DNA of 64,000 bases from an uncultured Pseudomonadales bacterium (GTDB lineage Bacteria; Patescibacteriota; Microgenomatia; UBA1400; PJMF01). Shown in pieces: positions 2,522 to 58,062 of this stretch. The notes beneath the pieces were generated by a model. It was not told the DNA's origin and did not search any database. It worked only from the letters and a program-made list of their open reading frames with translations. Position 1 is the stretch's first letter, and every line of letters begins with the position of its first letter. The stretch lies in assembly GCA_964511345.1 (NCBI GenBank), contig CAZEEV010000001.1, forward strand, positions 72,089 through 136,088. The letters are read 5' to 3'. The translations under genes and the position numbers were made by a program.

Positions 2522-2901
2522 TAAGAAACTATTATAATGATTCTCAGTAAAATCGCCAAAAGCAAAACTTGCAATAAAAGAGTCATTTTAATGAACATTC
2601 TTAAAATGTTGTCATTAATTTCTTTTTCAATGTAGACGATGATGAAGTGGGCAAGGTTAATTAGAGTTGCAATAATTGGTAAGATGAAAATAAATTTTTT
2701 GTTAGCCAATTGCTGATCACTAGAGAGAGAATAAAAAAGTGGTATTTCTTTTTGCAGAGAAAAATAAAAAATTACTACAAGCAATATAGAAATAAGATTA
2801 AAAACAATAGCAGCTAAGCCCATAGGACGTAAGCTTTTTGGTAGAAATTTTAGATAACGAATCCCAGTTTTCTTTTTTTCAGTTTTAAAAGTCAATTCCA
2901 T
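2521..2901 (-). CDS. Small polytopic membrane protein, hypothetical
   Basis: ORF with 3-4 hydrophobic helices, positioned between the GT4 and GT-C genes and overlapping the GT4 gene end. Confidence 0.4.
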   Translation of the reverse strand: MELTFKTEKKKTGIRYLKFLPKSLRPMGLAAIVFNLISILLVVIFYFSLQKEIPLFYSLSSDQQLANKKFIFILPIIATLINLAHFIIVYIEKEINDNILRMFIKMTLLLQVLLLAILLRIIIIVS

Positions 2902-2914
2902 GATTTAACTTTCA

Positions 2915-4507
2915 TTATCGCTTCAGATAAAGAATCATATGCTGAAAATCATTATTGGCAAGATAATAATTTTCCAGATACTCTTCTAGTTTTGGAAAGC
3001 GTTCTTGCTCATTTTTCATTATGATAATTAATTTAGGATTTTCTTTTTCAATCTGCGCAAAAGTGCGATCTTGATCATCAAAGTCTTTAATGTGGAAAGA
3101 AACCGTGAAACGAGAAGTGGGAATAGCCTGACTTTGAGCATAAAGTAGAGGATTAGTGCCCCAAATAAACATTTTTTTGATACCCATATCTTTGATTAGC
3201 TTACTTACCTGACGATTTTCTTCAACTAAAGAGTCAAAAGAGTTTTCATATTCTTCTTTACTAATTTGCAGAGTCGCATATTTATAGAATTGCTTGTAAT
3301 ATTTGGCACTCGAATATGGTCTGAAATTTAAACTCAACATCACATAGGCGGTCAATAACAATAAGCCACCGCTGATAATTAGTGCTTTAGCGGTATGTAA
3401 GATCTTTTTTTTCTTGATTTCTTTAAGAGTAATAAATAAATCAACTAGTAATAAAGCCAATGGAGGGACCATCTGAATGAAGTAATGTGGATATGGTCGG
3501 CTAGATAATAAGACAGAATAAAGAGTAAAGACAAAGTATAGACTGATAAATTGAAATCTTTTCTTTAACTTGTCGTTATTTAAAGAAACAAGAATAAAAA
3601 TAGCAAATAAAATAATAGTCTTGCCAGTCATGCTAAAAGCAAAATTAATCAGGCTGTTTCCAAAATCTAGTGGCCAAGATTGGCTATAACGCAGATTATA
3701 GAGCAAGCCATAGTCAAGATAGTCTTGACCTTGTCCTTTGGCGACGAAATAAATTACAGAAAATATTATTGGCAATAATAATCCAGCTCCGAAGAAAAGT
3801 CCTCTATTGAGCAGATAAAAGAAAGTTGTCCTAAATTGTTTTAGATTACTTTTTACGTCAAAGAAAGTGGTTACTAAAATTAGCCAAAAAATAGACAAAA
3901 ATCCAGCCACATCAAGTAAAGCTGGTACTTTAGTTAGAATACCGAGGCCCATTATAAAACCCGCTACCAGTAAGAGCGCCCCGTCTCCCAAGGTTTTATT
4001 AATGGTTATTTCTTTTTTGAAAAAATTAACAAAAATAGAGCTTTTACTAAACAAGATGGCTCCAAGCATAACAAAGCCCATAACAAACAATTCTCCATTG
4101 GGAATATTGCCTTCAAGCCATGGGAGAGTAGTTAAAATAACTAAAATTAAACTTGCTAAAAAAGCCCAGCGTTCTTTTTTAAATAATTTTTTGGCAAAGA
4201 TAAAGAAAAAAGAAGTGGTGAACAACATCCAAACTAGATTAAGGATACGAAAATAAAATTGATTTGGCACCATGGCCAAGTAATAGATCAGTGGGGTTTT
4301 GTGATCAATAATAGTAGTGTAAAGTTGCTCGCCATTTCTCAATGCATTTCCCAAAGTGAGATAAATAGCTTCATCTCCGTACCAGTAAGGTTCAAAAAAA
4401 TTAGGTAAACGCAAAAAAATAATTAACACCAAGAGTATCAGGAGTGGGGTTTGACGATCTAAAAAACGATCAACTTTTTTAAAAAGAGAAATTAGTTTCA
4501 TACGCAA
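2915..4507 (-). CDS. GT-C fold membrane glycosyltransferase (GT39/GT83, ArnT/PMT-like)
   Basis: N-terminal motif EPYWYGDEAIY after the first TM (PMT/ArnT DE-loop), around 11 TM helices, 530 aa. Confidence 0.65.
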   Translation of the reverse strand: MRMKLISLFKKVDRFLDRQTPLLILLVLIIFLRLPNFFEPYWYGDEAIYLTLGNALRNGEQLYTTIIDHKTPLIYYLAMVPNQFYFRILNLVWMLFTTSFFFIFAKKLFKKERWAFLASLILVILTTLPWLEGNIPNGELFVMGFVMLGAILFSKSSIFVNFFKKEITINKTLGDGALLLVAGFIMGLGILTKVPALLDVAGFLSIFWLILVTTFFDVKSNLKQFRTTFFYLLNRGLFFGAGLLLPIIFSVIYFVAKGQGQDYLDYGLLYNLRYSQSWPLDFGNSLINFAFSMTGKTIILFAIFILVSLNNDKLKKRFQFISLYFVFTLYSVLLSSRPYPHYFIQMVPPLALLLVDLFITLKEIKKKKILHTAKALIISGGLLLLTAYVMLSLNFRPYSSAKYYKQFYKYATLQISKEEYENSFDSLVEENRQVSKLIKDMGIKKMFIWGTNPLLYAQSQAIPTSRFTVSFHIKDFDDQDRTFAQIEKENPKLIIIMKNEQERFPKLEEYLENYYLANNDFQHMILYLKR

Positions 4508-4549: not shown

Positions 4550-6046
4550 CTAAACTTTTTCTGTGACTTTATATTCCATGTATTTGCCGAGCATGAGTCT
4601 AGTGTGAGCATCTATGCCTGGCAGAGCGGAAAAAAAGAAACCAATGATGGGAATCAGAATAAATTCAAGGGGTTGGATAACATAGGAGAGAATATTTCTT
4701 CCATTTTCTCTTTTGGGTCGATTATTGCTATCAATTAAGAAAATCGTAATCATGGAAATTAAGGACAAAGTCAATAAAGTAGAAGTAACTTGTGGCAAGG
4801 TTTTGCCAATAATCGTGCGAGTGAATTGATCGTTAAGTAGTGGTGGGAGCATAGCTGAGATGGTGACAGCGAACCAGTTTACAGGCCACAGGAAATGATC
4901 TTCAATAACTTTCAAGACACGGATAGTTTTGTCCCAAAAAGGAATTCCTTCAGTTAATACATATTGTCTGATTACATAAGCATCATCACTAACACCCCAA
5001 GCCCAACGTTTAATTTGTTCATATTGGTTGTGCATTGTTCTCCAAAAGCCATTGGATTGCACAGCATCAGCATAAATGGGCAAAAAAATTGGCTCAACCT
5101 CAAAATCACCTTTTTTAGCAAAATAAGATTTGAAAAATAAACGATAGTCTTCAGGAATTACGTCAGTGTCCCAGTAGCCAATGTCTTCAACATGTTTAAG
5201 GGTGGTGGAATAAGTGGAAAAATTAATCAAACGATCGCGACGAGACAAAATATAAATTTGAGTGACTGATTGAATGGCCGCTAAAACACGAATGGGAGCG
5301 GGTACTTTCCAGATATTGTTATAAAAACTAATCCCTCCTTGCCAACTACGATTATAAGGCTTGTCACTAGTTAAAAATAAATAAGTAAGATGAGAAAAAT
5401 AGTGAGGGTGAAAAATAGCATCAGCATCTTCACTGGTAATAGTAATGTTTTCGATAGGTATACCTGCTTGATCAACTAATAATTTCTTAGCAGCCTTGGC
5501 ACCATAACAAGTGTTGGAGGATTTGCCTTTAATTTCTCCAACAATGTCCGGATGTTTGCTAACCCACAAATGACCGAACTGTTTACCAAACTTTTTTTGC
5601 AAGGCAGCGGCTTTATCATCAACAATTTTGCCTTCTCTCTCTTCAAAAGAAAGCATGACATGGATATTTTTATTTGGAAAAGTTTGTTTGGTTAAGCCGG
5701 TCAGAGTTCTTTCCAAAGTAGAAATTGGTTCTTGGTAAGTGGGAATGACGATGATGTGGTGAATTTCATGATATTTTTTTGGAAAAAGTTTTTTTAATGT
5801 TGGCAAATAATCATATTTACTAAAGGCTTTAATTTTAAAGTGAGAAATAGTTGCAAAAAAAGTTAAAGCGAGGGAGCGATACAACCAATAAACAGCAAAA
5901 ATAATGACGTAATATGCAACCATTTGTGGAATTAACAAAGACCCCCAAATCGGAAAAAGAATGAAGAACCAAGAAAACAATCCAGGCAAAATTTCTAAGG
6001 CTCGTTTAGTGCGGATTGGATGGCGGCGAAAATATCTTTTGACCAT
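4550..6046 (-). CDS. Processive GT2 membrane glycosyltransferase (cellulose/chitin-synthase-like)
   Basis: GT2 A-domain start HIIVIPTYQEP, DxD as SEDADAI, QxxRW motif as EQIKRWAWG, flanking TM helices. Confidence 0.7.
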   Translation of the reverse strand: MVKRYFRRHPIRTKRALEILPGLFSWFFILFPIWGSLLIPQMVAYYVIIFAVYWLYRSLALTFFATISHFKIKAFSKYDYLPTLKKLFPKKYHEIHHIIVIPTYQEPISTLERTLTGLTKQTFPNKNIHVMLSFEEREGKIVDDKAAALQKKFGKQFGHLWVSKHPDIVGEIKGKSSNTCYGAKAAKKLLVDQAGIPIENITITSEDADAIFHPHYFSHLTYLFLTSDKPYNRSWQGGISFYNNIWKVPAPIRVLAAIQSVTQIYILSRRDRLINFSTYSTTLKHVEDIGYWDTDVIPEDYRLFFKSYFAKKGDFEVEPIFLPIYADAVQSNGFWRTMHNQYEQIKRWAWGVSDDAYVIRQYVLTEGIPFWDKTIRVLKVIEDHFLWPVNWFAVTISAMLPPLLNDQFTRTIIGKTLPQVTSTLLTLSLISMITIFLIDSNNRPKRENGRNILSYVIQPLEFILIPIIGFFFSALPGIDAHTRLMLGKYMEYKVTEKV

Positions 6047-6074
6047 TTTATGTTGTTATTATACCTGATTTCAC

Positions 6075-6938
6075 CTAATTGATATTAAAAGCCCTTAGTG
6101 AGTTTTGATAAATCTCTTCTAGATTAGCATTGAAATTATTTTTCAGATAGGCAGCCGTTTCGGCAATCATATAAGGTTCACAAATTTGTCCCCGATATGG
6201 TTCAGGAGCAAGATAAGGTGAATCTGTTTCCAAGAGAATTTTTTTAGGATCAGCTGTTTGTATCAAAGAGAAAATATCTCTAATATAATCTGCTTTTTTG
6301 AAAGTGATATTCCCATCGAAACCAAAATAGCTATTTTTCATAGTTAGAGCTTCTTTAATATAATCCAATGGTCCAGAAACGCAGTGAAAAATCAGAGAAT
6401 TTTTGAATTGCCAAAATTGTTCAATGAGTTTTAGAGTTTCAAAATAAGCTGCTTCTCCCTGATCTCTAACGTGCAGTACTAAGGGTAGATTTAATTGATT
6501 AGCAAGTTCAATTTGTGCGATAAAGAGTTTTTGTTGTTTTTCTTTGATTTGTTTTATCTCAATGTTGTTTTTAGTTGTTAAATAAAAATGATCCAAACCT
6601 GTCTCACCAATGGCAACAACTTTGTTATTTTGTGCTAGTTCTTTTAATTCGATGACGGCTTGCTCGATTCCATTAACATTATTGATTTCTTCTGGATGAA
6701 TGCCAATCACTGCATAAAGATTTTCATCTTGCTTAGCAATTTCAATAGCTTTTTGACTATGCGCTAAACTTGGTCCCACAATAATACTTTTTTTAATGCC
6801 TGTTTCTTGAGCTTTTTGCCAATGATCCTGCCAGTTTTGAGTGAGAATTGGATCTTGGTTATGGATTTTAAAGTGAGAAACTTGACCGCTATAAAGTGGT
6901 TCTAAATTATAATGGCAATGAGTATCAATAATTGGCAT
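6075..6938 (-). CDS. tatD: TatD-family metal-dependent hydrolase/DNase
   Basis: N-terminus MPIIDTHCHY with TatD His/Glu ligand pattern (GIHPEE, ETGLD, HVRD, LETDSPYLAP). Confidence 0.85.
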   Translation of the reverse strand: MPIIDTHCHYNLEPLYSGQVSHFKIHNQDPILTQNWQDHWQKAQETGIKKSIIVGPSLAHSQKAIEIAKQDENLYAVIGIHPEEINNVNGIEQAVIELKELAQNNKVVAIGETGLDHFYLTTKNNIEIKQIKEKQQKLFIAQIELANQLNLPLVLHVRDQGEAAYFETLKLIEQFWQFKNSLIFHCVSGPLDYIKEALTMKNSYFGFDGNITFKKADYIRDIFSLIQTADPKKILLETDSPYLAPEPYRGQICEPYMIAETAAYLKNNFNANLEEIYQNSLRAFNIN

Positions 6939-21891: not shown

Positions 21892-24411
21892 ATGAAAGAA
21901 GCTTTTTATAAATTGTCTGTCGCAGAAAGTTTAAGTAAACTTGGTAGTCAAATTAATGGGCTCAGTGAACAAGAAGTGGCACGAAGATTACAAAGAGATG
22001 GCAAGAATCAATTAAAAAAAACACGACAATTTTTAGCACTTAAGGTTTTATTAAATCAGTTTAAAAGTTTGTTGATTGCGATTTTATTTTTAGCCATGGG
22101 CTTGTCGATTTTTTTAGGCGAAAAAATCGATGCAATTGCTATTTTTGTTGTGATTGCACTCAACACCATTTTGGGTTTCATCGAAGAATACAAGGCTGAG
22201 AAATCTATTGATTCTTTAAAAAATCTAGAAACTCTACAAGCCCTTGTTGTGCGTGATGGAGTGGAAAAATTAATTGATCCAGCTTTCCTAGTCAAGGGTG
22301 ATGTTTTAATTTTGAATGAGGGTGAAAAAATTCCAGCTGATTGTAGAATTTTAGAAGCTTTTTCCTTGGAAGTAGATGAATCGATGTTAACTGGTGAATC
22401 TGCTGTAATTGTTAAATCAACTGAAAAAATTGATTATGAAACAAGTATCGCGGATCGTAAAAATTTGCTTTATTCCTCCTGCTTAATTACCAAAGGGAAA
22501 GCTAAGGTGGTAGTGATTGCTACGGGTATGGCAACGCAAATTGGCCAAATCGCAACACAAATCCAAGCTGTCAAAGAAGAGCAGACTCCTTTACAAAAAA
22601 CTCTAGATCATTTAGGGAAAAACGTTGCTCTTTTGGCTATGGTCTTAGCGACTCCAATTTTATTAATTGCTCTTTGGCGCGGAGAAGATTTATTTGCAAC
22701 GATCATGATGGGCGTGTCCCTAGCAGTTTCTAGTATTCCTGAAGGGTTGCCAATCGTAGTGACAGTGGCTTTAGCTTTAGGAATCAAAAGAATGATGTCT
22801 GTTAATGTGCTTACAAAAAAATTACCCGCTGTTGAATCTTTAGGTGGAGTGGATGTGATTTGCTCAGATAAAACTGGCACTATTACCAAAAATCAAATGG
22901 AAGTGATGGACATTTTTATGATTCATTCTTCTGCGAGTGATTTAGCTCTAGAAGCAGTTTTATGCAGTGATGCCAAATTAGATCATGGTGATCCAACTGA
23001 GCGTGCCTTAGTTGATTTTTTGCAAAAGTATCCAGACCAAGAAAAGTTATTAAATACTTACCAGCGAACTGCAGAGCTACCTTTTTCTAGTGAAAATAAA
23101 TACATGGCGGTCATAGTTACCAATAAACAACAAACTAAAACCATTATTAAAGGAGCGCCTGAAATTGTTTTGCAATTTTGTAAGCTTGATTCTCAATTAA
23201 GAGAAAAAATTCTAAAAGCCAATGAAGATTTTACTAAAAAAGGTTTAAGAGTTTTAGCAGTGATTGCCAAAAACACCAAAGATGCTAGTGATTTTAGTGA
23301 ACTAAAGAATTTTAATTTTGCTGGTTTATTGGCGTTACAGGATCCTCCTAGAGAACAAGTCAAATCATCTATTTTGAAATGCAAATCAGCTGGAGTCAGA
23401 GTGATTATGATTACCGGTGATCATAAGAATACCGCTTTATCAATTGCTAAAGAGATTGGTTTAGAAGCAGACATGGCTTATACAGGACAAGAATTAGATC
23501 AGTTAAATCAAACAGAGTTAATTGAAGCAGTTAAAACCTGCCAGGTATTCGCTCGAGTGTCTCCACAAAATAAAGTGCAGATTTTGGAAGCTTTACAAAG
23601 CCAAGGTTTGCAAGTGGCGATGACCGGAGACGGAGTTAATGACGCGCCAGCTCTCAAAAAAGCAGATATTGGAATTGTAGTTGGCTCTGGCACTGCTTTG
23701 AGTAAAGATATTGCTGACATGATTTTATTAAGTGATGATTTTTCCAATATAGTAGATGGGATTGAAGAAGGTCGCCATATTTTCTTCAATATTAAGAAAT
23801 TTGTTCGATTTTTATTGAGTGCTAATTTTGACGAAATCTTATGTATTGCCAGTTCAATCCTATTTTCTTTACCTTTAGTTTTTATTCCGATTCAAATTTT
23901 ATGGCTTAACTTGGTAACAGACACTTTTCCTGCTTTAGCTTTGAGTAATGATAATGCCGATCAGTCTCTAATGAAGCAAAAGCCTTATACAGCTAAAAAA
24001 GAAGTTGTAAGAGGGGTAATTTCTTATGCAGCAGTAGCGGGCTTTTTTGGTTATATGATTACTTTTTCTACTTTTTTGTTTGCTCTTTTTGTAATGAACG
24101 TAGATGAAGTTTATGCGCGTACAATGAGCTTTTCAGCGATGATTTTCTTTGAATTATTTTTGGTGTTTTCGATCAGATCAGAAGAAAGTGCTTTAAGAAG
24201 CAATCCATTTTCTAATAAATTTCTTAATTTTGCCGTACTTTTTGCTTTTACTTTGCAGTTTTTAGCAATCTATCATCCGTTCTTACAGAACTTTTTAAAA
24301 ACCACAAGTTTAAAATTAGTTGATTTAGTCTGGCTTTTACTTTGGTCTAGCTGCGGATTTGTTTTTATGGAAGTTTATAAAAAGATAAGAAAAGATAGAG
24401 TAAGGCTTTGA
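21892..24411 (+). CDS. P-type cation-transporting ATPase (type II, Ca2+/Mg2+-ATPase-like)
   Basis: CSDKTGTIT phosphorylation motif, MITGDHKNTA, MTGDGVNDAPALKKADIGI, around 10 TM helices. Confidence 0.9.
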   Translation: MKEAFYKLSVAESLSKLGSQINGLSEQEVARRLQRDGKNQLKKTRQFLALKVLLNQFKSLLIAILFLAMGLSIFLGEKIDAIAIFVVIALNTILGFIEEYKAEKSIDSLKNLETLQALVVRDGVEKLIDPAFLVKGDVLILNEGEKIPADCRILEAFSLEVDESMLTGESAVIVKSTEKIDYETSIADRKNLLYSSCLITKGKAKVVVIATGMATQIGQIATQIQAVKEEQTPLQKTLDHLGKNVALLAMVLATPILLIALWRGEDLFATIMMGVSLAVSSIPEGLPIVVTVALALGIKRMMSVNVLTKKLPAVESLGGVDVICSDKTGTITKNQMEVMDIFMIHSSASDLALEAVLCSDAKLDHGDPTERALVDFLQKYPDQEKLLNTYQRTAELPFSSENKYMAVIVTNKQQTKTIIKGAPEIVLQFCKLDSQLREKILKANEDFTKKGLRVLAVIAKNTKDASDFSELKNFNFAGLLALQDPPREQVKSSILKCKSAGVRVIMITGDHKNTALSIAKEIGLEADMAYTGQELDQLNQTELIEAVKTCQVFARVSPQNKVQILEALQSQGLQVAMTGDGVNDAPALKKADIGIVVGSGTALSKDIADMILLSDDFSNIVDGIEEGRHIFFNIKKFVRFLLSANFDEILCIASSILFSLPLVFIPIQILWLNLVTDTFPALALSNDNADQSLMKQKPYTAKKEVVRGVISYAAVAGFFGYMITFSTFLFALFVMNVDEVYARTMSFSAMIFFELFLVFSIRSEESALRSNPFSNKFLNFAVLFAFTLQFLAIYHPFLQNFLKTTSLKLVDLVWLLLWSSCGFVFMEVYKKIRKDRVRL

Positions 24412-24471: not shown

Positions 24472-26826
24472 TTAAACTGAAGCATTAAACAGTCGATTAG
24501 AGACTTCACTAAGCTTAATTTGCAAAGGTGGACCAGCCGGATCAATCGGCTCATGTTTGAAACCAATTAGAGCAATATTTTCTGGATTATCATCTTTTTC
24601 ATTGGTTAAGAATGTTGAATTGCCAGTTCCTAACATAATTTCTTTAATTTGCGCCTTAATGGTTTGAACTCTAGACTCATTCCAATTTTCTGGATTAGTT
24701 TTATCTTCAAGTCTTTTGAGAGAGGATAAAATAATACGCCTAAGTGTTCTATCTTTAAGATCGTCTAGATATTTTAGATTCTGTTGAGCTAAAGAAAAAT
24801 GCAAGTTAAGTTCTAGCAATGAATAGCCGAACTCTTCTTTTACCTCTAAATTAATAAATGAGTTTGGATCGTCCCAATCTTTGGGTTGGTATGAATATGG
24901 TAAGACGTAAAGATGAGAGCTATTAGTAGCTTCTTTTCGTTGGTGATCTTCTGTTTGTCTGGTTTCTGTTGCTTGATTTTCGCTAGTTTGCTTGGATACA
25001 ACAGCGGAAGTTTGGTAAAGATCGCGATTTTTAATTGCTAATAAATATGAAAAAACTACTCTTTCTACCCAAGCTCTTTCAGCAGGAGCTAATTTAAATA
25101 GTGCTGGAGTTTCCATCTGTTCATTAATTTCAAAAACAAACGCTCTTTTGCTTAGTTGCAGAGAAACTTCTAAATTATGAGGACTAGTAGTACGTCTAAA
25201 AGTAAGTTGCTTTAAGCCAATTTGAGCCAATAATTTGTCTTGGCCTTGAGACTGATCTAATTTGACACTAATGCCTCTTTTAGAAATAGGGAACATTCCA
25301 CCTCTAGCTTGATCTTTAAGTTCTGTTAATGGCGTGGTCTCATCCAAATCTAACTCAGGACGAAGAAAAGTCACAATGGCTGCCATTTCAGCTATTTCTA
25401 AAGGTTTAGTAGATGTATTAAGTAAATGAGGAAGATTAGCCTTAAGTTCTAAAATAGAAGCTGGGTCTAGTTTATCTAAATCGTTACGAGTAATATTTCC
25501 TCTCCAAGTAAGAAGACTATTTTCTTGATTCTGGGCAAATTGGGAGGGAATGACAAAGCCACCAAAATCGCCTTCTTTTTTTAACAAATCCAATTCTTTT
25601 TCCATGGCAAATTTAATTAACTCATTTGCCAATGGATCTGAGGCATAATTTTCTATTTTTTCACAAAATACTGGAAGATTATCTGTTTTTTTGGCCATTT
25701 CTATTCTAGAGTTAAATCCTGCGAATCTGAGAATTTCATCAAACTTTCGATCATCGCTAAGAGTATTGCTACTTTGCTCAAAGATTTTTTCTAAAATAGC
25801 CACTTTAATGATTGATTTTTTGACATTAGCCTGTAACTCAGATTGGCTAGTTTCTTCATTTGGATTCACACTGATGATTTCAACGACTTCTCCCAAATCA
25901 TTAGTTCTGCCGATCATATCCTCTGCCACATATGCTCCTAAGGAAGTAAAAGTTTCTAGCACATACTGAGCCTGTTGACGTACTTGTAAATCGGGGTGGT
26001 GAATATGAGTGAACTTAATTACGTCAAATAAATCACAATAATCTTCTATTGCCTCTCCTTGCTGATCCTTTTTTGGTTTATCAATACTTAAGTCTTCAAA
26101 TATTCTTAGGACCACTAATTGTTTTAAACTGTTTCTGCATTGTAGTGCTACTAAAGAAAGTTGATGAAGATTGTTAATAATTTTTTTAAATGGAAGTTGA
26201 TCGATTTTTGGAATTGATTCTGGACTTTTTGATTGCTCGTGTCTTCTTTTTGAATTTGATTCAGAAGTTAAGCCATTTGCTTGCTGTTCAATTGCTCTTC
26301 TAGTTCCTCTTATTCTAGATGGAATTATTTTAGACTCTTCTAACAATGGAAAAATATCTTCACTCGTATTAAATGATTTTAGTTTGTTACCATTCTCTTG
26401 GACAAACTGTTTCAAAGTCGGGCTGAAAATTTTAAAATCAGTCATTCCCATGTTCATTGCCAAAGTTAAGGCATTTTTATATTTATCATTTAATTTAGGA
26501 TTAGCACCTAAACCATTAATTAGAAAAGAGAATTCTTCCTGATTGCACCAGTAGTGTTCTTTTTTATCGGAGAGAAGTTCTGTGATTTTATCTAGGATTA
26601 ATTCTTCAAATTCTGCTAAAAGAAGATCAGAGCGACTTGCGACTTCTGTTTTTATGAGTCCCAACTCTTTGAGATTTTGAGCTTGTTGAATTTGTTGATA
26701 AATTTCTGATTGCTCTATTTTACTCATAATATTATCTTGTCTTTTTTCAAGAAGAAAATTTGTGGTGACCCTAAGGTTTCTACATCCGAACCAAATTATA
26801 ACAGATCTAGTTGATCTAATGAACAC
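24472..26826 (-). CDS. Large orphan protein (784 aa as listed; probable true start at 26727, MSKIEQ...). It has an ankyrin-like segment, no P-loop and no known catalytic motif
   Basis: Long uninterrupted ORF. LGANPKLNDKYKNALTLAMNMG resembles one ankyrin repeat. A TATAAT -10 box lies inside the listed N-terminal 33 codons. Confidence 0.55.
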   Translation of the reverse strand: MFIRSTRSVIIWFGCRNLRVTTNFLLEKRQDNIMSKIEQSEIYQQIQQAQNLKELGLIKTEVASRSDLLLAEFEELILDKITELLSDKKEHYWCNQEEFSFLINGLGANPKLNDKYKNALTLAMNMGMTDFKIFSPTLKQFVQENGNKLKSFNTSEDIFPLLEESKIIPSRIRGTRRAIEQQANGLTSESNSKRRHEQSKSPESIPKIDQLPFKKIINNLHQLSLVALQCRNSLKQLVVLRIFEDLSIDKPKKDQQGEAIEDYCDLFDVIKFTHIHHPDLQVRQQAQYVLETFTSLGAYVAEDMIGRTNDLGEVVEIISVNPNEETSQSELQANVKKSIIKVAILEKIFEQSSNTLSDDRKFDEILRFAGFNSRIEMAKKTDNLPVFCEKIENYASDPLANELIKFAMEKELDLLKKEGDFGGFVIPSQFAQNQENSLLTWRGNITRNDLDKLDPASILELKANLPHLLNTSTKPLEIAEMAAIVTFLRPELDLDETTPLTELKDQARGGMFPISKRGISVKLDQSQGQDKLLAQIGLKQLTFRRTTSPHNLEVSLQLSKRAFVFEINEQMETPALFKLAPAERAWVERVVFSYLLAIKNRDLYQTSAVVSKQTSENQATETRQTEDHQRKEATNSSHLYVLPYSYQPKDWDDPNSFINLEVKEEFGYSLLELNLHFSLAQQNLKYLDDLKDRTLRRIILSSLKRLEDKTNPENWNESRVQTIKAQIKEIMLGTGNSTFLTNEKDDNPENIALIGFKHEPIDPAGPPLQIKLSEVSNRLFNASV

Positions 26827-27041
26827 ATTTTTTCCAGATGTAAAAAAGATTCAAAACTATGCCTGGTCCTAGTACTCCTTAATGAGAATTGAACCAGAAA
26901 GAAAAAACAGCGACGTGTAATATTTTACCTATTAACGTGCAATCGTTGCACAAGCGTATGCGGTAAAGAACAGTCTTCCTCAATAGTTTTATAAGGTAAA
27001 TAAGTGTGAGTAAAGGTTGCAATGCTTTACACGTGAGGTCT

Positions 27042-28079
27042 TTATGGTCGTCGCGGAGGTCTTTGTGGTTGTTGCGGAGGTACTCCTCCTTGAAACATCT
27101 GGAAATGTTTGCCCCAAGATACACCAGTTTTACTTTCGTAAAGTTTTATAAATGGACTGATGCTAAAAAACCCGTTTAATAAAATATAGGCTTCCCATAG
27201 TAAATCCTTTAAACTACCAGAAGCAACAGATACTTTTAAATCTGTTAAATCTGCAATTTTTTCTGGCGTTAGTGGTCTCGAGTGTATTTTATGAGAGTTA
27301 TAGTCGGAAAAGTAGGAAACCATCTTTTTTAATTTTTGACCATTCATTCTTTGACCAGCAAACATGTATTTTTTTAACCATGTAGATACCAATTCTTTTG
27401 AAAGTTTTTCAGAGTCATAGCATAATTCGAATAAGTCTAGTGAATATTGTTCAATCAGAGGTAGATATGCTGGTAGTACTTTGGCGCCATCCCTCTTGAT
27501 TATGCTTTTTGCATGATCAAATCCATTTAAAATTGATTTTGCAGGGACAAAGCGCACAAGACCATTTTTTGCAGGGATCCCTACTTGAGGATCAACAGGA
27601 CCTAAGGTTGCACTTGGATGTAACACAATATTATTTCCTGATAAAGCTAGCATTGTTGCTGCGGAATATGCTGAGTGAGGAATAAGAAAGTCAACTTGTT
27701 GAAATCTGCTTCTAAGTATTTCGACTATTCTTTCGGTTGCATCTGGTCTACCGCCAGGACTATGTATTAGCACGTCAACACTAGTTATTTCTGACGGTAT
27801 TGAGTTGACTAAGTCAGTAAACCCATCAACGTCTGACAAGTCTATTTGATTTGGAGCCCCATCAGGAACATTTTCAATGAACTTAGTTGCATATACTAAC
27901 AATGGTTTCTCTCTCAATGCTTCAATTTCAGAATAACAAAGCTTCCTTAAATCAAATAGCGTGGACGCTTGAATTCCTTGCGGTTGTTGTAAAAGTGGGG
28001 CGATGTAATCGTGCCAATCTTGAGTAGTTTTAAAAATCCTGCGTTGTTGTTGAGAGGATGGCATATCTATTAATCTCAA
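27042..28079 (-). CDS. ClpP-superfamily serine protease (SDH/S49-like) with proline-rich C-terminal tail
   Basis: VLIHSPGGRPDATERIV oxyanion motif, catalytic Ser context HSAYSAATMLALSG, LGPVDPQVG, tail QGGVPPQQPQRPPRRP. Confidence 0.65.
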   Translation of the reverse strand: MRLIDMPSSQQQRRIFKTTQDWHDYIAPLLQQPQGIQASTLFDLRKLCYSEIEALREKPLLVYATKFIENVPDGAPNQIDLSDVDGFTDLVNSIPSEITSVDVLIHSPGGRPDATERIVEILRSRFQQVDFLIPHSAYSAATMLALSGNNIVLHPSATLGPVDPQVGIPAKNGLVRFVPAKSILNGFDHAKSIIKRDGAKVLPAYLPLIEQYSLDLFELCYDSEKLSKELVSTWLKKYMFAGQRMNGQKLKKMVSYFSDYNSHKIHSRPLTPEKIADLTDLKVSVASGSLKDLLWEAYILLNGFFSISPFIKLYESKTGVSWGKHFQMFQGGVPPQQPQRPPRRP

Positions 28080-28263
28080 AGTCTAGTGTAGAACTAACTT
28101 CTGATGAGTTTGCATAGAAGCCTCGTCCATAAGCAATTTCTGCTTCACTAAGAATTGCCTTTGCCTTTTTATACTTTTTATAATATGTAAAAGATTCTGG
28201 GATTTGTTTTTGAATTTTTTTAGTTGCAATCTTACTTACGATCGTTTTTTTAGTAGTTGCCAT
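28030..28263 (-). CDS. 77-aa basic small protein, first gene of the protease operon (possible regulator/partner)
   Basis: ORF overlaps the protease start by about 50 nt; K-rich; no recognised motif. Confidence 0.4.
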   Translation of the reverse strand: MATTKKTIVSKIATKKIQKQIPESFTYYKKYKKAKAILSEAEIAYGRGFYANSSEVSSTLDFEINRYAILSTTTQDF

Positions 28264-28599
28264 ATAAGTAAATCATATCACCTACGATTTAATTTTCTAG
28301 TAATAATAAACCCAGTGTCTGGTTCAAAAGTTTCTAGTGTTTAATTTGTCGATAGCTTAATTAAGGAGAATTCGTTAATACAGACATGTGATCTGTGGGG
28401 CTATTTTACAAGTAATTTATCCAAGTAGTAGTAAATCATCTAAGTATAAAAGAGAATTCAGTAAATATGTGTTGGATATATTAAAAATCAAAAATATAAA
28501 TGAAGCTACTAAAACAAAAACACTTTATTCATATAAGAAACCGAAATTTTGTAGAGTCGTTATGTAGTTGGCGTGAAGTTACAAAAAAATCAGATACAT

Positions 28600-28607
28600 T
28601 GTATAAT
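28600..28607 (+). promoter_or_regulatory. Extended -10 (TGTATAAT) candidate promoter for the OLD-family gene
   Basis: TGnTATAAT about 49 nt upstream of the ATG at 28656, in a 392-nt AT-rich divergent intergenic region. Confidence 0.35.
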
Positions 28608-28655
28608 TAACCTTCATAATGAAAAGCTGAGGATTGCATATTATATGGAAACTAT

Positions 28656-30608
28656 ATGTATATTAAAAAAGTATCGATAAAAAACTTTAAAAGTTTCAAA
28701 ACTGAGACAGAAGTTGTTTTACAAGATGGATTAAATCTAATAGTTGGTCCTAATTCTGGAGGAAAAAGCAATTTGCTTGAATTAATCCAAGCATTCTTCA
28801 ATGATGTTTTTTTTATGGATGCTAGCTTTGAACAAAACAATGAAAGCAATCCAAATAGATTGGTGGTAATAAAACCTTTTAAAGCTGTTCAACAACGTTC
28901 AGATGGCAATCAACTACAAAGAGTTTTTGATTCGCACGTAAATGGATCTGGTGAAAGCGTTCTTAAAGTTGTTTTAGCTATTACTAAAGATGATATAGAT
29001 AATATAAATGAATTTAAAAAAACAATAGATGTTTTGGAAGATTTTGAGAATAAAGAAATTGGCTCAAATTTTATAAGCCAAGTAAAAAGAGGTTTTAATC
29101 TATCTACCAAATATGAAAGCTATGTAGATTCAGATTTACCAATCATTTTTACTCTTAGTAATGATGCTCAAGTAGATAGCTCAGTAAAAACAAATGATTT
29201 AGAGGGATTATTTCATTTTTTACGTTGGAGTAGAGTTATATTTAAGTTAGCCTGGTTTTATAAACTTTTTAGACCAGATTATGAAGTAAAGTTGAGACCG
29301 TATTTTTACTATATCTCACCCGCAAGGGATTTTTCCCTTTCAGAGAATGAACATATTATTGATTTAGCTCAAGTGAATGGAAACAGTGCAAATCAATTCA
29401 CTCAGAGAAACATAAATCAGGAAAGTAGGATAAGTAATCTTGGTGTTTTAATAAGAATATTGGTTGAGAATTATTATTACGCTGGAAAGAAAAATAATCC
29501 AAGCAATGATGAGTTTAGAAAAATGTTGAATGATTATTTAAAAATGGATTTTTCAATAGCAACGCATGGAATAGAAACGCAAAATAAATACAAACTTATT
29601 TTCAGAAAAATAAGTAGTTCGTCTCTAAAACTAAGTTCTGGAGAAAGGGAATTTTTTAATTTATTGTCAACTGTATTTGCGCAGAACATACGTTCAGGAA
29701 TATTGATTATTGATGAGCCAGAAATACACTTACATCCTAAATGGCAACATATTTTTCTTGATCTTTTAAAGAGTATATCGGTAATTAGAAAAATACAGAT
29801 TATTTGTGTAACACATTCTGCATCATTTATCAGAAGAGATTTGCTTACAGGTATCATCAGAGTGTCAATGATAAATGATGAGAGTCATGTTTATCTTCCA
29901 AATAAAAGTCAAACGCAAAATACCACGATAAAAGATCAGTTTATGCTTGTTACGGCGTCGAACAATGAACGTGTTTTTTTTGCTGACAAGATAGTACTTG
30001 TTGAAGGTTATGCTGATAGAATCATTTTTCAAGCCATTTTAGATAAAGTTTATTCACAGGATAAACCAATAATTGAAATTGTTGATGTTTTTGGAAAATG
30101 TAATTTTGAAAGGTATAAAAACTTTTTATCGATTTGGGATATATCTACAAAAGTTATTGCTGACCTGGATTATTTAGCAATGGTGGATAGTGAAGCAAAA
30201 ACAAAAATTTTTTCAGTTGAAGAAAAGAAGCTACAGAAAAAATTGGAAAAAAATAATAGCGAAGATGGAAAAAGTTTATTAAAGATCTTATCTCATATTT
30301 GCGACAGTGAAGTGGACGAAGTATGTGAAATCGATAAAAATCAGTTGTGTAGTTTATATAAATATCTTAATACACGTCATTCATCTTTGGTTGTAACTGG
30401 CAGTCAAACAGATATAGATTATTATGTTGAAAAAAATAAAAAAGATAATTTGTATTTTCTTAAAAAGGGAGAAATTGAAGATTACTTTCCAGGTATAGGA
30501 AAGTTTGATATCGATTCAGCTATTGATATTGGTGAGAAAATAAAATCAGGTGAGATTGCGATAGATAAAGAGTTAGCAAAATTAATAAAAGAAGTTGCTC
30601 ACAGCTAA
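28656..30608 (+). CDS. OLD-family ATP-dependent endonuclease (ABC-type ATPase + C-terminal TOPRIM), class-1 (stand-alone) architecture
   Basis: Walker A GPNSGGKSN, ABC signature-like LSSGEREF, Walker B ILIIDEPEIHLHP, H-loop CVTHS. TOPRIM glutamate VLVEGYADRI and DxD as IADLDYL. Confidence 0.8.
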   Translation: MYIKKVSIKNFKSFKTETEVVLQDGLNLIVGPNSGGKSNLLELIQAFFNDVFFMDASFEQNNESNPNRLVVIKPFKAVQQRSDGNQLQRVFDSHVNGSGESVLKVVLAITKDDIDNINEFKKTIDVLEDFENKEIGSNFISQVKRGFNLSTKYESYVDSDLPIIFTLSNDAQVDSSVKTNDLEGLFHFLRWSRVIFKLAWFYKLFRPDYEVKLRPYFYYISPARDFSLSENEHIIDLAQVNGNSANQFTQRNINQESRISNLGVLIRILVENYYYAGKKNNPSNDEFRKMLNDYLKMDFSIATHGIETQNKYKLIFRKISSSSLKLSSGEREFFNLLSTVFAQNIRSGILIIDEPEIHLHPKWQHIFLDLLKSISVIRKIQIICVTHSASFIRRDLLTGIIRVSMINDESHVYLPNKSQTQNTTIKDQFMLVTASNNERVFFADKIVLVEGYADRIIFQAILDKVYSQDKPIIEIVDVFGKCNFERYKNFLSIWDISTKVIADLDYLAMVDSEAKTKIFSVEEKKLQKKLEKNNSEDGKSLLKILSHICDSEVDEVCEIDKNQLCSLYKYLNTRHSSLVVTGSQTDIDYYVEKNKKDNLYFLKKGEIEDYFPGIGKFDIDSAIDIGEKIKSGEIAIDKELAKLIKEVAHS

Positions 30609-30611
30609 TTT

Positions 30612-30941
30612 TTATAGATTCTTATATCTTTTAGGATACCTCTTTTTAAGATTAGAATTAGCTGCTTTTATTATATCTTTTCCCCAATCATCATTCTTTA
30701 GTTTGTTAGCCTTATTTGCATACAGTAGGCTTATGGGTTTATTCCATACTGATATTAGCCAAGCAATTAATATTGCCAATATTCCTACTCCACCGATAAT
30801 GATGCCAAAAATTCCGCCATAAAACATGGTAAGAACTAGGATTCCAGCAATGAGAATAGAAAGACCTCTCATTCCTTCCTTTTGAGCGACTGCTCCGCCT
30901 ATAAGCATGCTTAAAATCATCAATACAAGTATTTCAATCAT
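30612..30941 (-). CDS. 109-aa two-TM small membrane protein converging on the OLD gene (candidate membrane effector or immunity partner)
   Basis: Two Gly-rich TM helices (GILVLTMFYGGIFGIIIGGVGILAILIAWLI) and basic C-terminus; stop 3 nt from the OLD stop. Confidence 0.45.
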   Translation of the reverse strand: MIEILVLMILSMLIGGAVAQKEGMRGLSILIAGILVLTMFYGGIFGIIIGGVGILAILIAWLISVWNKPISLLYANKANKLKNDDWGKDIIKAANSNLKKRYPKRYKNL

Positions 30942-30992
30942 ATGTAAATGTATACTACCAGTAAGTCGACCAACAGTAAAGATTTTTAGAAA

Positions 30993-31016
30993 CTGTAACC
31001 ATGGTAAAAGTTACAG
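30993..31016. promoter_or_regulatory. Inverted repeat CTGTAAC-N10-GTTACAG spanning the HTH gene start codon (candidate autoregulatory operator)
   Basis: Perfect 7-bp arms at 30993-30999 and 31010-31016 bracketing the ATG at 31001. Confidence 0.4.
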
Positions 31017-31216
31017 CAATCTCAATTAAAATAGGCAAAAACATTAAAAAGATCAGAGTAAATAAAGATATGACTCAGGAAGCATTAGCTTTTGATGCTG
31101 GAGTGAACCGAGCTTACATTGGATATATAGAACGTGGTGAAAGAAATCCTTCAACTGAAACATTATCTAAAATATCAAAAGCATTAAAAGTTTCTTTAGG
31201 TGATCTTCTAAATTAA
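31001..31216 (+). CDS. XRE-family (Cro/cI-type) helix-turn-helix transcriptional regulator
   Basis: 71 aa with IRVNKDMTQEALAFDAGVNRAYIGYIERGERNPSTETLSKISKAL, the classic HTH_3 pattern. Confidence 0.75.
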   Translation: MVKVTAISIKIGKNIKKIRVNKDMTQEALAFDAGVNRAYIGYIERGERNPSTETLSKISKALKVSLGDLLN

Positions 31217-31501
31217 AGCAAAAAATCTCAAAATAACGTGTTTTTATGCATAATTGCACATAAAACGCTGTGATTTTTGTATTGCCAATAAAACCAAGCA
31301 AGGCTAATAAGATAGTTTCCAGACACGGTAAAAAGGGAGCTATAGTGTTGGTTGTTTTCCTATTGCCTTCACATAGTTTTGGTCCCTAAAATTTTATGTA
31401 ATATAAATTACGGGTAAGATTTAAATTTTTTTCAGATGACGGGAAAGCAAATCTAAGTGAATAGAATCTTCTAAGGTTCTATTTAGATTGGCTACCGTTC
31501 C

Positions 31502-31648
31502 ATGACAATCAAAGAGGCAAGGAAAATATTAGGGAGAAAAGCAAAAGATTTGTCTGATGAAGAACTTCAACAAGATATTGATGCGGCAGAATTATTAAAG
31601 GAAATTTTTTTTAGTTTATATCTTTCCAAAAGAAAATCTATTCAGTAG
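31502..31648 (+). CDS. Unannotated 48-aa ORF upstream of the recombinase (candidate excisionase/RDF-like small protein)
   Basis: Translation MTIKEARKILGRKAKDLSDEELQQDIDAAELLKEIFFSLYLSKRKSIQ. Below the ORF-track size cutoff; ends 30 nt before the recombinase ATG; no SD. Confidence 0.25.
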   Translation: MTIKEARKILGRKAKDLSDEELQQDIDAAELLKEIFFSLYLSKRKSIQ

Positions 31649-31657
31649 CCATTCAAT

Positions 31658-31674
31658 GTGCCATAATTCGGCAC
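31658..31674. promoter_or_regulatory. Hairpin/operator GTGCC-ataattc-GGCAC immediately upstream of the recombinase start
   Basis: Perfect 5-bp inverted repeat with 7-nt spacer, 4 nt before the ATG at 31678. Confidence 0.35.
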
Positions 31675-31677
31675 TAT

Positions 31678-33207
31678 ATGGAAAAAAGAGCAGTTATATA
31701 CATTCGCGTATCAGATCCCTCTCAAATAGAAAATAACAGCTTGGAGACACAAGAAAAAGAATGTCGAAAAGCTGCTGCATCTCAGGGTTACGATGTTATT
31801 AGAATTTTTAGAGAAGAAGGTAGGTCTGCCAAGCATATATATACAAGATTAGAGCTAAGGAACCTATTTGACTTTTGTTCAATCAAGAAACATGGAATTA
31901 GTGCAGTTTTTGTTTATAAAACTGACAGGTTTAGTAGAAATGTTGAAGAAGGATTGGCTGCCATTTCAAGGTTAGCAAAGCTAGACATTGAAGTTATTTC
32001 AGTTGTAGAAGGTTATGAAAACAGCGCAATGGGTCGTGCTCTAAGAGTAATGATTATGGCAATGGATCAATTAGATAATGAGCTAAAGGGAGAAAGAGTG
32101 AAGGAAAATATGTTGGCTTGTTTCAGGAAAGGATTGTGGGTTTTCAAATGTCCAGTTGGTTACAAACGAAAGTATCATACAAAAGAGGAGAATAAGGGTA
32201 TACCTCCAATAAAAGACCCCAATTTAGCACCAATCATTACAAAGATGTTCCAAAACGCAGCCACTGGTATTTACAGTAAAAGCCAGCTTGCGCGCATTAT
32301 GAACTTGGAGGGTTTCAGTGAGCATTACAGGGTAGAGGCTGATCACAAAATTGTTGATGGTATCCTAGAGAAAACTTTCTACCACGGACTCATGTATGCT
32401 CAAAAATGGGATTTATATTCTCAGGGTAAACATGAGCCGCTTATTGATGAGACAACTTGGAAAAAAGCCTATCATTATCTCATCTTAAAAAAGAAAAACT
32501 ACCAATATCATGATGAAGAACTATTTCCATTAAAAGGTACGCTTAAGTGTGAAATATGTGGGCATCCAATGACAACTTCCCCCTCAAGGGGTAATGGGGG
32601 GGTAGTGACTTACTATGAATGTCGCAATAAGGGATGTAAAAAGGTTCGTATTAATGCCAATAGTGCGCACCAGCAATTTAATGATTTACTTAGTAGAATA
32701 CAGCCGACTAATAGAGTCATTACGCTTTTTCAAAAGATGGTATTTGTTGAGTGGGATAAAGTGATTAATAAGACTCGAAAACAAGCAGATATCATTGATG
32801 ATCGTATTTATGCTTTCAAGCAAGAATTGAAGAGTATCCGCAAAGCCAAAGACGAAGGTTTGTATAGCATTGAGCAGGCTAAAGAAGAAGCTGAAAAAGT
32901 GAGTCAAGAAATTACAATATTGGAAGTAGAGCGTTCTGAAATAAAGTTTGAACAATACAATACAGAAATAATTAAAGATTTTACTGAAAGATTTCTGCGC
33001 GATCTTAATTTGTTATGGGAAAAGTTAGATCTACCTAAAAAACAGGCATTGCTTCAGAAGATATTCCTTAATACTTTGTTTGTATCAGAAGACAAAAAAA
33101 TCCGAACAAGTGAAATATCTCCATCCTTCCAACTAATTGAGGCTCTTGGTGCCTCTGATGGTGAAAATGTGACCCCATGGGGAATCGAACCCCAGTTATC
33201 GGGATGA
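31678..33207 (+). CDS. Large serine recombinase (resolvase N-domain + recombinase domain + zinc ribbon + coiled coil)
   Basis: Catalytic motif VIYIRVSDPSQ, TDRFSRN, zinc ribbon CEICGHPM...YYECRNKGCKK. Last about 13 codons overlap the tRNA-Glu 3' half on the opposite strand. Confidence 0.85.
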   Translation: MEKRAVIYIRVSDPSQIENNSLETQEKECRKAAASQGYDVIRIFREEGRSAKHIYTRLELRNLFDFCSIKKHGISAVFVYKTDRFSRNVEEGLAAISRLAKLDIEVISVVEGYENSAMGRALRVMIMAMDQLDNELKGERVKENMLACFRKGLWVFKCPVGYKRKYHTKEENKGIPPIKDPNLAPIITKMFQNAATGIYSKSQLARIMNLEGFSEHYRVEADHKIVDGILEKTFYHGLMYAQKWDLYSQGKHEPLIDETTWKKAYHYLILKKKNYQYHDEELFPLKGTLKCEICGHPMTTSPSRGNGGVVTYYECRNKGCKKVRINANSAHQQFNDLLSRIQPTNRVITLFQKMVFVEWDKVINKTRKQADIIDDRIYAFKQELKSIRKAKDEGLYSIEQAKEEAEKVSQEITILEVERSEIKFEQYNTEIIKDFTERFLRDLNLLWEKLDLPKKQALLQKIFLNTLFVSEDKKIRTSEISPSFQLIEALGASDGENVTPWGIEPQLSG

Positions 33208-33241
33208 GAACCCGATGTCCTAACCGCTAGACGATAGGGCC
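33170..33241 (-). tRNA. tRNA-Glu (anticodon CUC), 72 nt, no encoded CCA
   Basis: Manual fold of GGCCCTA-TC-GTCT-AGCGGTTA-GGAC-A-TCGGG-TTCTCAT-CCCGA-TAAC-TGGGG-TTCGATT-CCCCA-TGGGGTC-A. 7-bp acceptor has two G-U pairs; T-loop TTCGATT; architecture parallels E. coli tRNA-Glu. Confidence 0.8.
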
Positions 33242-33326
33242 GTTTAGCTTTGGAATTATAGCAAATTTGCTCGAATTTTGTAAACGTTACACTTCTTGCA
33301 ACTTGGTTCGTCCATAATTTAAATTA

Positions 33327-57864: not shown

Positions 57865-58062
57865 TTAGTAATGAATTGTAAGAATTGCCACTTGCAATGA
57901 TTTTTCATTTTTGTTAGTTTGATTGTTGCTGTGGAATGTAGTGAAAATCTACGACTGTGCCGCAACGGTGATTCTCATTAAGAGATTAGTCCGATCTTCA
58001 GCAAAAAAGAAATCTTGACGAGCATCGAAGTAAATTGAAAAGTGATATTTTTTAGAATCGAT

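Follow-up and report, generated by a model that had tools for sequence, protein, structure and literature searches.

Does the block at positions 24472-33241 of a 64,000-nucleotide (nt) stretch of DNA from an uncultured bacterium that GTDB places in the Patescibacteriota (contig CAZEEV010000001.1; the whole stretch is called the window throughout) hold one mobile island with one new defence system? An earlier note, made from the letters alone, had read it as a single 8.8-kb island next to a tRNA-Glu gene, ending in a large serine recombinase and carrying an OLD-family nuclease, a ClpP-like protease operon and an orphan protein of 784 amino acids (aa), and had proposed these three as an undescribed multi-gene anti-phage module. 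We find that the block is very probably a composite, made up of a chromosomal gene for a 751-aa protein, a serine-recombinase element whose attachment site (attP) lies inside the recombinase open reading frame (ORF), and two cargo modules on that element which are independent of each other. Sequence comparison gives the three-part system no support, and points instead to a delimited 6.4-kb element with a known single-gene defence nuclease and an uncharacterised protease pair. The locus is a caution that adjacency on an island does not make one system.

Genes were called from an ORF listing together with ARAGORN, Rfam and family scans (Pfam, PADLOC v2 and PHROG), and the window was compared with contigs of relatives and with metagenome loci, which carry the labels L004-L111. 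The related metagenome loci were found with a profile of the recombinase family; a scan of the metagenomes with the single sequence gave nothing. Every gene named in the earlier note was recovered by the ORF listing, ARAGORN and the family scans, and its description of a cargo free of housekeeping genes was borne out.

Limits of the element and its target site

The mobile element occupies positions 26765-33174 of the window (6,404 bp), and 24472-26727, with which the supposed island began, lies outside it. The heptamer GTGACCC occurs twice, at 33169-33175 at the 3' end of tRNA-Glu and at 26765-26771 just upstream of the 751-aa gene. On two contigs of relatives, L007 and L008, tRNA-Glu sits 33-35 nt upstream of the start codon of the 751-aa homologue, and for that reason we take both as empty sites. 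The host side of the left attachment site (attL) agrees with these empty sites, and the tRNA-Glu of L004, L007 and L008 is identical or near-identical to that of the window. Joining the element ends gives the predicted attP junction GGTGAAAATGTGACCCTAAGGTTTCTACATCC, and the predicted empty junction (attB) reads GAAAATTTGTGGTGACCCCATGGGGAATCG. That a mobile element sits at tRNA-Glu with its large serine recombinase running 3' into the tRNA had been read correctly; the overlap is 39 nt. The base composition of the block, GC content included, is not distinct from its surroundings.

The features of the block and its immediate flank are these.

21892-24411, plus strand: P-type ATPase (family scan)
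24472-26727, minus strand: 751-aa chromosomal gene, outside the element (synteny in relatives; the long ORF spans 24472-26826)
26740-26800, no strand: attL, consisting of host B arm, core GTGACCC at 26765-26771 and element P' arm (second core copy at 33169-33175)
26771-26872, plus strand: recombinase "tail exon", the detached 3' end of 33 codons and stop, LRFLHPNQIITDLVDLMNTFFPDVKKIQNYAWS (in-frame joining)
27042-28064, minus strand: 340-aa SDH-type ClpP-fold serine protease, downstream gene of cargo module 1 (PF01972)
28030-28263, minus strand: 77-aa partner protein, upstream gene of cargo module 1 (overlaps the protease start by 35 nt)
28656-30608, plus strand: 650-aa stand-alone OLD ATPase/TOPRIM nuclease, cargo module 2 (AAA_15, OLD-like TOPRIM, PADLOC "Old")
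30612-30941, minus strand: 109-aa predicted membrane protein, divergent from the XRE gene (hydrophobic; weak PHROG membrane-protein match)
31001-31216, plus strand: 71-aa XRE/Cro-type helix-turn-helix regulator (HTH_3, E 2.2e-18)
31502-31648, plus strand: 48-aa ORF directly upstream of the recombinase, candidate recombination directionality factor (conservation, tblastn)
31678-33207, plus strand: large serine recombinase, integrated 509-aa form (Resolvase, Recombinase, Zn_ribbon_recom)
33169-33241, minus strand: tRNA-Glu(CUC), the target gene, with the right attachment site (attR) core GTGACCC at 33169-33175 at the acceptor-stem 3' end (ARAGORN, Rfam)

The repeat that bounds the element is 7 nt long, and no longer direct repeat covering the 3' half of the tRNA was found when one was sought. 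A "decayed tRNA remnant" at the left end was considered and rejected, since this sequence is the P' arm. This arm is similar to the tRNA T-arm read in antisense (the B' arm), with GAACC lying 5 bp further from the core in P' (window, L037 and L041). Across elements the identity at the core extends over 4-12 nt. The core co-varies between the two ends of an element, as in L038, which has GTGACGCTA at both, and the ends of L032, which is integrated in tRNA-Ile, have only GTGA in common; together these two observations place the crossover in or next to GTGA.

The same tRNA-Glu carries a different insert in L004, which has a decayed remnant of the recombinase tail and lacks a recombinase. This insert (L004 7048-9957) encodes a 410-aa protein, a DUF6602 protein and a metallophosphatase, with the tail remnant at 9253-9173. 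Judged from these contigs, the tRNA-Glu site is a hotspot reused by different inserts.

An attachment site predicted within the recombinase gene

In its integrated form the recombinase has 509 aa, and its last 13 codons are antisense to tRNA-Glu. When the element ends are joined (33169-33174 to 26765-26770), the result is an in-frame ORF of 532 aa with a 33-aa tail ending in "GENVTLRFLHPNQIITDLVDLMNTFFPDVKKIQNYAWS"; the relocated codons, the last 33 of the gene, occupy 26771-26869. Uninterrupted homologues of 531-536 aa (4-5 of the best 120 of 210, for example P0139, P0175 and P0185) end in "...ENVT(L/P)xLPHPNQIIxDLVDLFNTFxPD...", which is the same tail, at the same length, as in the rebuilt ORF. 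Because the joined ends restore a 532-aa ORF with the tail of its homologues, we place attP inside the recombinase ORF.

This arrangement recurs in related elements. L031, L032, L035, L037-L039, L041, L043, L045, L052, L065, L066 and L081 each have one or more tail exons upstream of the recombinase and on its strand, and joining at the GTGA core restores ORFs of 532-536 aa in seven of the nine elements tested, which are 3.5-6.4 kb long. The rebuilt attP sequences agree with the uninterrupted attP of L109 and L110, whose recombinase genes are contiguous (536 and 532 aa) and have no tRNA. In tail codons 11-27 we counted 217 synonymous against 197 non-synonymous codon differences, leaving out the first 10 tail codons as these could be constrained as a binding site, and this ratio argues for selection on the tail peptide.

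Some loci hold 2-4 copies of the tail, which are tandem remnants. Arrays of tail exons upstream of a single recombinase are found at L045 1524-6830, L052 123-2998 and L035 5151-6725, and look like traces of repeated integrations at one tRNA. The 6.6-kb contig L109 encodes two unrelated large serine recombinases (1528-3138 and 5098-6609; 23% identity), of which the first has the intact attP within its ORF, making the contig a tandem or composite element.

At the level of sequence the predicted scheme, with attP in the ORF recombining with attB at tRNA-Glu, is established, and it would work as follows. The recombinase would recombine attP, within its own reading frame, with an attB composed of the last bases of tRNA-Glu, a B' arm formed by its acceptor and T-arm, and a B arm formed by the spacer downstream. 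Crossover would take place within the common GTGA(CCC) core and would leave the tRNA intact. Integration would carry the last 33 recombinase codons to the far end of the element, the 13 tRNA-antisense codons taking their place. An excised or unrecombined form would thus encode 532 aa and the integrated form 509 aa; with attP inside the ORF, the C-terminus of the recombinase would depend on the state of integration. We found no description of attP inside a serine integrase gene in the literature searched, and absence there is no proof of novelty.

A recombinase family at tRNA 3' ends

The recombinase has the domains of a large serine integrase (PF00239, E 1.9e-25; PF07508, E 5.2e-7, and PF13408, E 1.3e-7, the latter two above their cut-offs), and it matches the phrog_95 integrase family with E 2.3e-67. 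The catalytic motif (Y8, R10, V11, S12 and D13) is invariant in 40 homologues. Short att sites, and an attP half-site spacing longer than that of attB, are both found in the sequence; the coiled coil expected in the zinc-ribbon domain gave a sub-threshold leucine-zipper match only, at residues 365-425. No match to Phage_integrase, the tyrosine recombinase family, was found in the element, and its sole recombinase is of the serine type. By these sequence-level family features, the coiled coil aside, the element is to be classed as a serine-integrase integrative element.

There are 210 homologues of the recombinase, the best 120 of which are 46-74% identical to it; the few that carry names come from Patescibacteria, including Beckwithbacteria, and the family, a large one, is apparently from this group. 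In 90 of the best 120 of the 210 (approximately 75%) the C-terminus reads "...ENVTPxG[IFV]EPxxxG", the peptide encoded by the antisense of the tRNA acceptor and T-arm. In 35 of 46 loci ARAGORN found the 3' end of the recombinase gene overlapped by a tRNA in antisense, mostly tRNA-Glu (CTC or TTC) and sometimes tRNA-Arg or tRNA-Ile, and relatives of 25-30% identity overlap Met or Ala tRNAs. The layout had been called classic for tRNA-targeting elements; it is classic for tyrosine integrases only. In a 2020 survey serine integrases at tRNA genes were called previously unreported, 14 of 297 candidate cases were listed and experimental proof was asked for (PMC7192596). Our literature searches found no later description of a tRNA-targeting serine integrase family; with the caution that such absence does not prove novelty, tRNA-targeting serine recombinases with a split tail are apparently an undescribed family.

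In L078 and L079 recombinase relatives of 30% identity overlap a tRNA-Met, and a second complete tRNA-Met lies 10.6 kb upstream (L078 136-208 and 10754-10825; L079 859-931 and 11477-11548), which suggests a larger element bounded by whole tRNA copies.

Backbone genes and cargo of related elements

The 48-aa ORF, which has no family match, stands upstream of the recombinase in 47 related loci (tblastn), at a distance of 30-190 nt where both coordinates were compared, and its product is probably the directionality factor. The XRE protein is probably a regulator; homologues occur in approximately 15 related recombinase loci, and small membrane proteins adjoin XRE in related elements.

The cargo differs from one related element to another and includes SLOG and NUDIX proteins, an APH-type kinase and SEC-C proteins. 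One related element carries PDC-S39 (E 3.2e-51), and another, at L065 6227-7405, a helix-turn-helix protein with a retron type VI reverse transcriptase (PADLOC RT_VI, E 4.6e-71). One subclade has a conserved 135-aa GP3_package gene (gp3-type, small-terminase-like; E 8.4e-17), often together with a DUF7736 protein, at L031 4196-4603, L032 1781-2188, L038 9151-9558, L039 4063-4470 and L109 4214-4621. This gene hints at phage-satellite behaviour in the subclade.

The 751-aa gene lies outside the element

The supposed 784-aa orphan has a real length of 751 aa. The gene callers of the source assemblies start it at the ATG at 26727, the start also found in homologues, and the 33 extra N-terminal codons of the 784-aa reading cross the left attachment site of the element. 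The protein has five close homologues (48-64% identity), on contigs L004-L008, and a full-library search with a profile hidden Markov model found 25 cluster representatives of the family among 1.84 billion, approximately 20 of them distant. Gene order around the homologue on L004-L008 is the same as in the window, with YbaB, Ham1, DeoC and a 172-aa gene on one flank and a 254-aa gene, a 209-aa gene, a CAP-domain gene and an 85-aa gene on the other, and the window genes of 27042-33207 have no match in these loci. Since it is syntenic in relatives that lack the island, the 751-aa gene is best read as a lineage-specific chromosomal gene and not as cargo. By the names given on the records of homologues, the lineage is probably patescibacterial. 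The comparison with related genomes for presence or absence of the block thus puts the 784-aa gene into conserved core synteny, the very outcome that the earlier note had named as speaking against its proposal. The 751-aa protein had no Pfam, PHROG or PADLOC match (PADLOC at E <= 0.01), and its AlphaFold2 model, with a mean predicted local distance difference test (pLDDT) score of 48, was unusable.

The slot between the 172-aa and 751-aa genes varies in content. It holds the P-type ATPase in the window (21892-24411) and in L007, a NUDIX gene in L004 (12186-12683), and a PQ-loop protein with a NUDIX protein in L008 (4425-5188).

The OLD nuclease

The earlier note was right to see a defence gene on the element, and this gene is the stand-alone OLD nuclease. 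AAA_15, AAA_21 and an OLD-like TOPRIM domain are fused in one protein of 650 aa, and the PADLOC model "Old" (E 1.7e-37) scores ahead of those for GajA and AriA. The best solved relative is PDB 6P74, an OLD-family endonuclease of Thermus scotoductus (E 6.4e-16, at low identity). The gene is flanked by the divergent protease pair and the convergent 109-aa membrane protein gene, and family scans found no helicase domain in any ORF of the element and no AriB-like partner. Two other identities were rejected: Gabija (GajA/GajB), as no UvrD-like helicase GajB is adjacent, and PARIS (AriA/AriB), as ATPase and TOPRIM are in one protein and not in separate genes.

From its domains and neighbourhood the protein is assigned as a stand-alone OLD nuclease of the class 1 type, and would be expected, from what is known of its family, to work against phages as a nuclease encoded by one gene. 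The first OLD to become known was that of P2, a satellite-helper phage. With class 1 OLD proteins (phage P2 Old; 6P74) it has in common an N-terminal ABC-type ATPase and a C-terminal TOPRIM domain, a single stand-alone gene and a place on a mobile element; it differs in its low identity to them and in its host, which is probably a member of the Patescibacteria.

The 77-aa/protease pair

The second cargo module consists of the protease and the 77-aa protein encoded directly upstream of it. The protease matches PF01972 (SDH_protease) with 54.9 bits against a cut-off of 31.3 (E 9e-15), and its best PHROG match is phrog_11747, a family of unknown function (E 2.9e-44). Its AlphaFold2 model (pLDDT 81.6) has a ClpP fold, for which the top Foldseek matches were the 1510-N NfeD protease and ClpP, with probability 1.00. 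The motifs HSPGG and HSAYSAAT are invariant, the latter holding the candidate nucleophile. The 77-aa protein had no match in any family library. An end reading STTAQKI is conserved in the pair.

Homologues of the protease number 1,097, and the best 120 of these are 59-74% identical to it across phyla, with hosts in Gribaldobacteria, Paceibacterota, Sungbacteria, Saccharibacteria, Omnitrophica, Bdellovibrionales, Gammaproteobacteria and Lentimicrobiaceae. Each of the 15 other distinct loci, which span several phyla, has a homologue of the 77-aa gene ahead of the protease; its product is of 73-80 aa in most of them and was called longer in three. The two genes overlap by 26 or 35 nt in 14 of the 15 and by 17 nt in L018. 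The pair is surrounded by toxin-antitoxin and restriction clusters at some loci and by plain housekeeping genes at others, and in the ten genomes compared its neighbourhoods were heterogeneous, with few restriction-modification genes and no constant third partner. Distant phage homologues of the protease occupy accessory-gene positions, two of the three examined having the small upstream gene. In IMG/VR the pair was found once, at L111 5929-7622, where the genes ahead of it encode a 965-aa restriction-type helicase and two unannotated proteins (274 and 289 aa), a neighbourhood that may be a defence cluster.

The pair, a small operon of two overlapping genes, travels as one unit among unrelated contexts, a feature of toxin-antitoxin-like cassettes. 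By its distribution it is best described as an autonomous, widely mobile two-gene cassette, and it is a widespread and conserved candidate module. The two genes would be translationally coupled. Its likeliest mode of action might, tentatively, be toxin-antitoxin-like or one of abortive infection, the small partner being processed by the protease.

We found no description of PF01972/DUF114 in defence in the literature searched. The 1510-N NfeD protease is stomatin-specific and cleaves its own operon partner. The likeness to this NfeD/STOPP system is that a ClpP-fold serine protease is encoded with a partner that it possibly cleaves; the partner in the window differs in being a soluble 77-aa protein without a stomatin or known effector domain. 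In protease-effector defence modules cleavage switches on a small effector encoded upstream, and the proteases used are trypsin-, caspase- or subtilisin-like (bioRxiv 10.1101/2025.11.14.688446). The window protease differs from these in being ClpP-like, and cleavage here is a prediction; by analogy, cleavage of the 77-aa partner may be a reasonable mechanism.

Weighing the explanations

That the OLD gene, the protease operon and the 784-aa protein are one new anti-phage system on an 8.8-kb island has in its favour that the genes are adjacent, that the protease pair and the large gene are on the same strand, and that OLD is a known defence gene. We consider it very improbable. The large gene is syntenic in relatives without the island, and attL falls between it and the protease, so the two cannot form one element-borne operon. 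By tblastn none of the 15 other distinct protease loci has an OLD or 751-aa homologue, and both OLD and the protease are missing from all 80 related recombinase loci, so that the three genes co-occur at no locus of either set. It is just as hard to credit that the block is a decayed prophage with the ClpP-like protease as its leftover head-maturation protease. Weak PHROG matches to head-maturation proteases (E 6.6e-6 to 7e-3) and the gp3-type small-terminase-like gene on some related elements would fit, yet the best PHROG match of the protease is to the family of unknown function. Family scans found no portal, capsid or terminase in the element, and the portal/protease/capsid cassette that the earlier note had raised is matched neither there nor around the homologues. 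Moreover, the pair stands alone in bacterial chromosomes of many phyla, its distant phage homologues occupy accessory positions with a small upstream gene, and the recombinase family is absent from IMG/VR.

The tRNA overlap and the tail likeness could instead be incidental, with a true gene of 509 aa, attP downstream of it, and upstream "tails" left by older tandem elements. The loci with 2-4 tail copies prove that tandem remnants exist, and L109 may be a tandem array. We think this improbable, as at the far element end the tail is in every case directly next to the core repeat and joins in frame, gene and tail are never contiguous in an integrated copy, the full-length genes that are contiguous have no tRNA, and coding constraint on the tail extends past the length of a binding site. 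A more serious contender, unlikely as we judge it, is that the element is a phage satellite in need of a helper phage, and that OLD and the protease pair serve the conflict between satellite and helper instead of host defence. This would suit the tiny size of the elements (3.5-6.4 kb, with recombinase, regulator and small conserved genes), the GP3_package gene of one subclade and the origin of OLD in P2; the window element, however, has no packaging gene, no helper is known, and the family's absence from IMG/VR counts here too.

Several results weigh against our own reading of a composite with a mobile, defence-bearing element. The empty sites come from related species and not from the same strain, and dyad-symmetry analysis found weak symmetry and no clear crossover dinucleotide. 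Excision in this organism is a prediction, and a circular form is likewise predicted, as L109 may represent a tandem array in a chromosome instead of a circle. Family scans recognised no replication, transfer or packaging gene in the element. PADLOC has no model for the pair, and the protease and 77-aa protein, like the 751-aa protein, had no match in it at E <= 0.01. In some genomes the pair sits in housekeeping contexts, which weakens the defence reading.

The composite reading can be extended to a wider proposal, which we regard as possible and rather doubtful. The recombinases would be an undescribed serine-integrase class specialised on tRNA 3' ends, in which attP in the enzyme's own gene acts as an integration-state sensor (an episomal 532-aa and an integrated 509-aa isoform differing in activity or directionality); the elements would be a main vehicle for defence-gene exchange in Patescibacteria; and, as a separate point, the 77-aa/ClpP-fold protease pair would represent a new module of the abortive-infection or toxin-antitoxin kind that is activated by the protease.

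Other observations in the window

Scans for promoters and terminators gave counts no higher than in shuffled controls. A near-consensus extended -10 promoter lies at 33255-33284 on the minus strand, directly upstream of tRNA-Glu (TTTACA, 18-nt spacer, TG, TATAAT; 11 of 12 matches). An AdoCbl (cobalamin) riboswitch at 57906-58050 on the plus strand (Rfam 50.4 bits, gathering threshold 50) precedes the ORF at 58148-58870.

Significance and comparison with known systems

Serine integrases are major genome-engineering tools and, in the general view, do not favour tRNA genes as targets. Their target repertoire would be widened by a large natural family directed at a near-universal, highly conserved sequence, and with the tail swapped on integration, a comparison of the 532-aa and 509-aa forms would bear directly on control of direction by the tail. 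The family also offers a handle on defence-gene exchange in reduced genomes, apparently those of Patescibacteria, with OLD, a retron and PDC-S39 carried on elements of 3.5-6.4 kb.

With phiC31, Bxb1, A118, SPbeta and the SCCmec Ccr recombinases the window enzyme has in common the Resolvase, Recombinase and zinc-ribbon domains, short att sites and a very short identity core. It differs from the phiC31 type in its target, a tRNA 3' end, in having attP inside the recombinase ORF and in the small size (3.5-6.4 kb) of its elements. In structural models the zinc-ribbon domain is bound further out on the half-sites of attP than on those of attB, which the 5-bp offset of GAACC fits, and the A118-type model reportedly describes an offset between P' and B' like the 5 bp seen here. 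Serine integrases have a distinct domain organisation on attP- and attB-derived half-sites (PMC5499577).

The tycheposons of Prochlorococcus, as far as the portion of the preprint drawn on here describes them, are likewise small cargo-carrying elements at tRNA genes in streamlined genomes, a few of them with large serine recombinases; 910 of 937 tycheposons and cryptic elements use tyrosine recombinases, many carry replication genes, and in that portion we found no description of attP within an ORF (bioRxiv 10.1101/2020.12.28.424599). Islander-type islands resemble the window element in that they integrate at a tRNA 3' end and preserve the function of the tRNA, have the integrase gene beside it and sit at a hotspot reused by different inserts (compare L004), and differ in their tyrosine integrase and in a long duplicated tRNA segment where the elements described here have a repeat of 4-12 nt.

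The closest parallels for attP within a coding sequence also involve tyrosine recombinases. Archaeal integrases of the SSV1 type have attP in the coding sequence and are split by integration into two large parts. In the integration-dependent immunity of cluster G, N and P mycobacteriophages it is the repressor, and not the integrase, that is truncated. In both, as in the window element, integration alters or splits the product of a gene that contains attP; here the predicted exchange affects only the C-terminal 33 aa of a serine recombinase.

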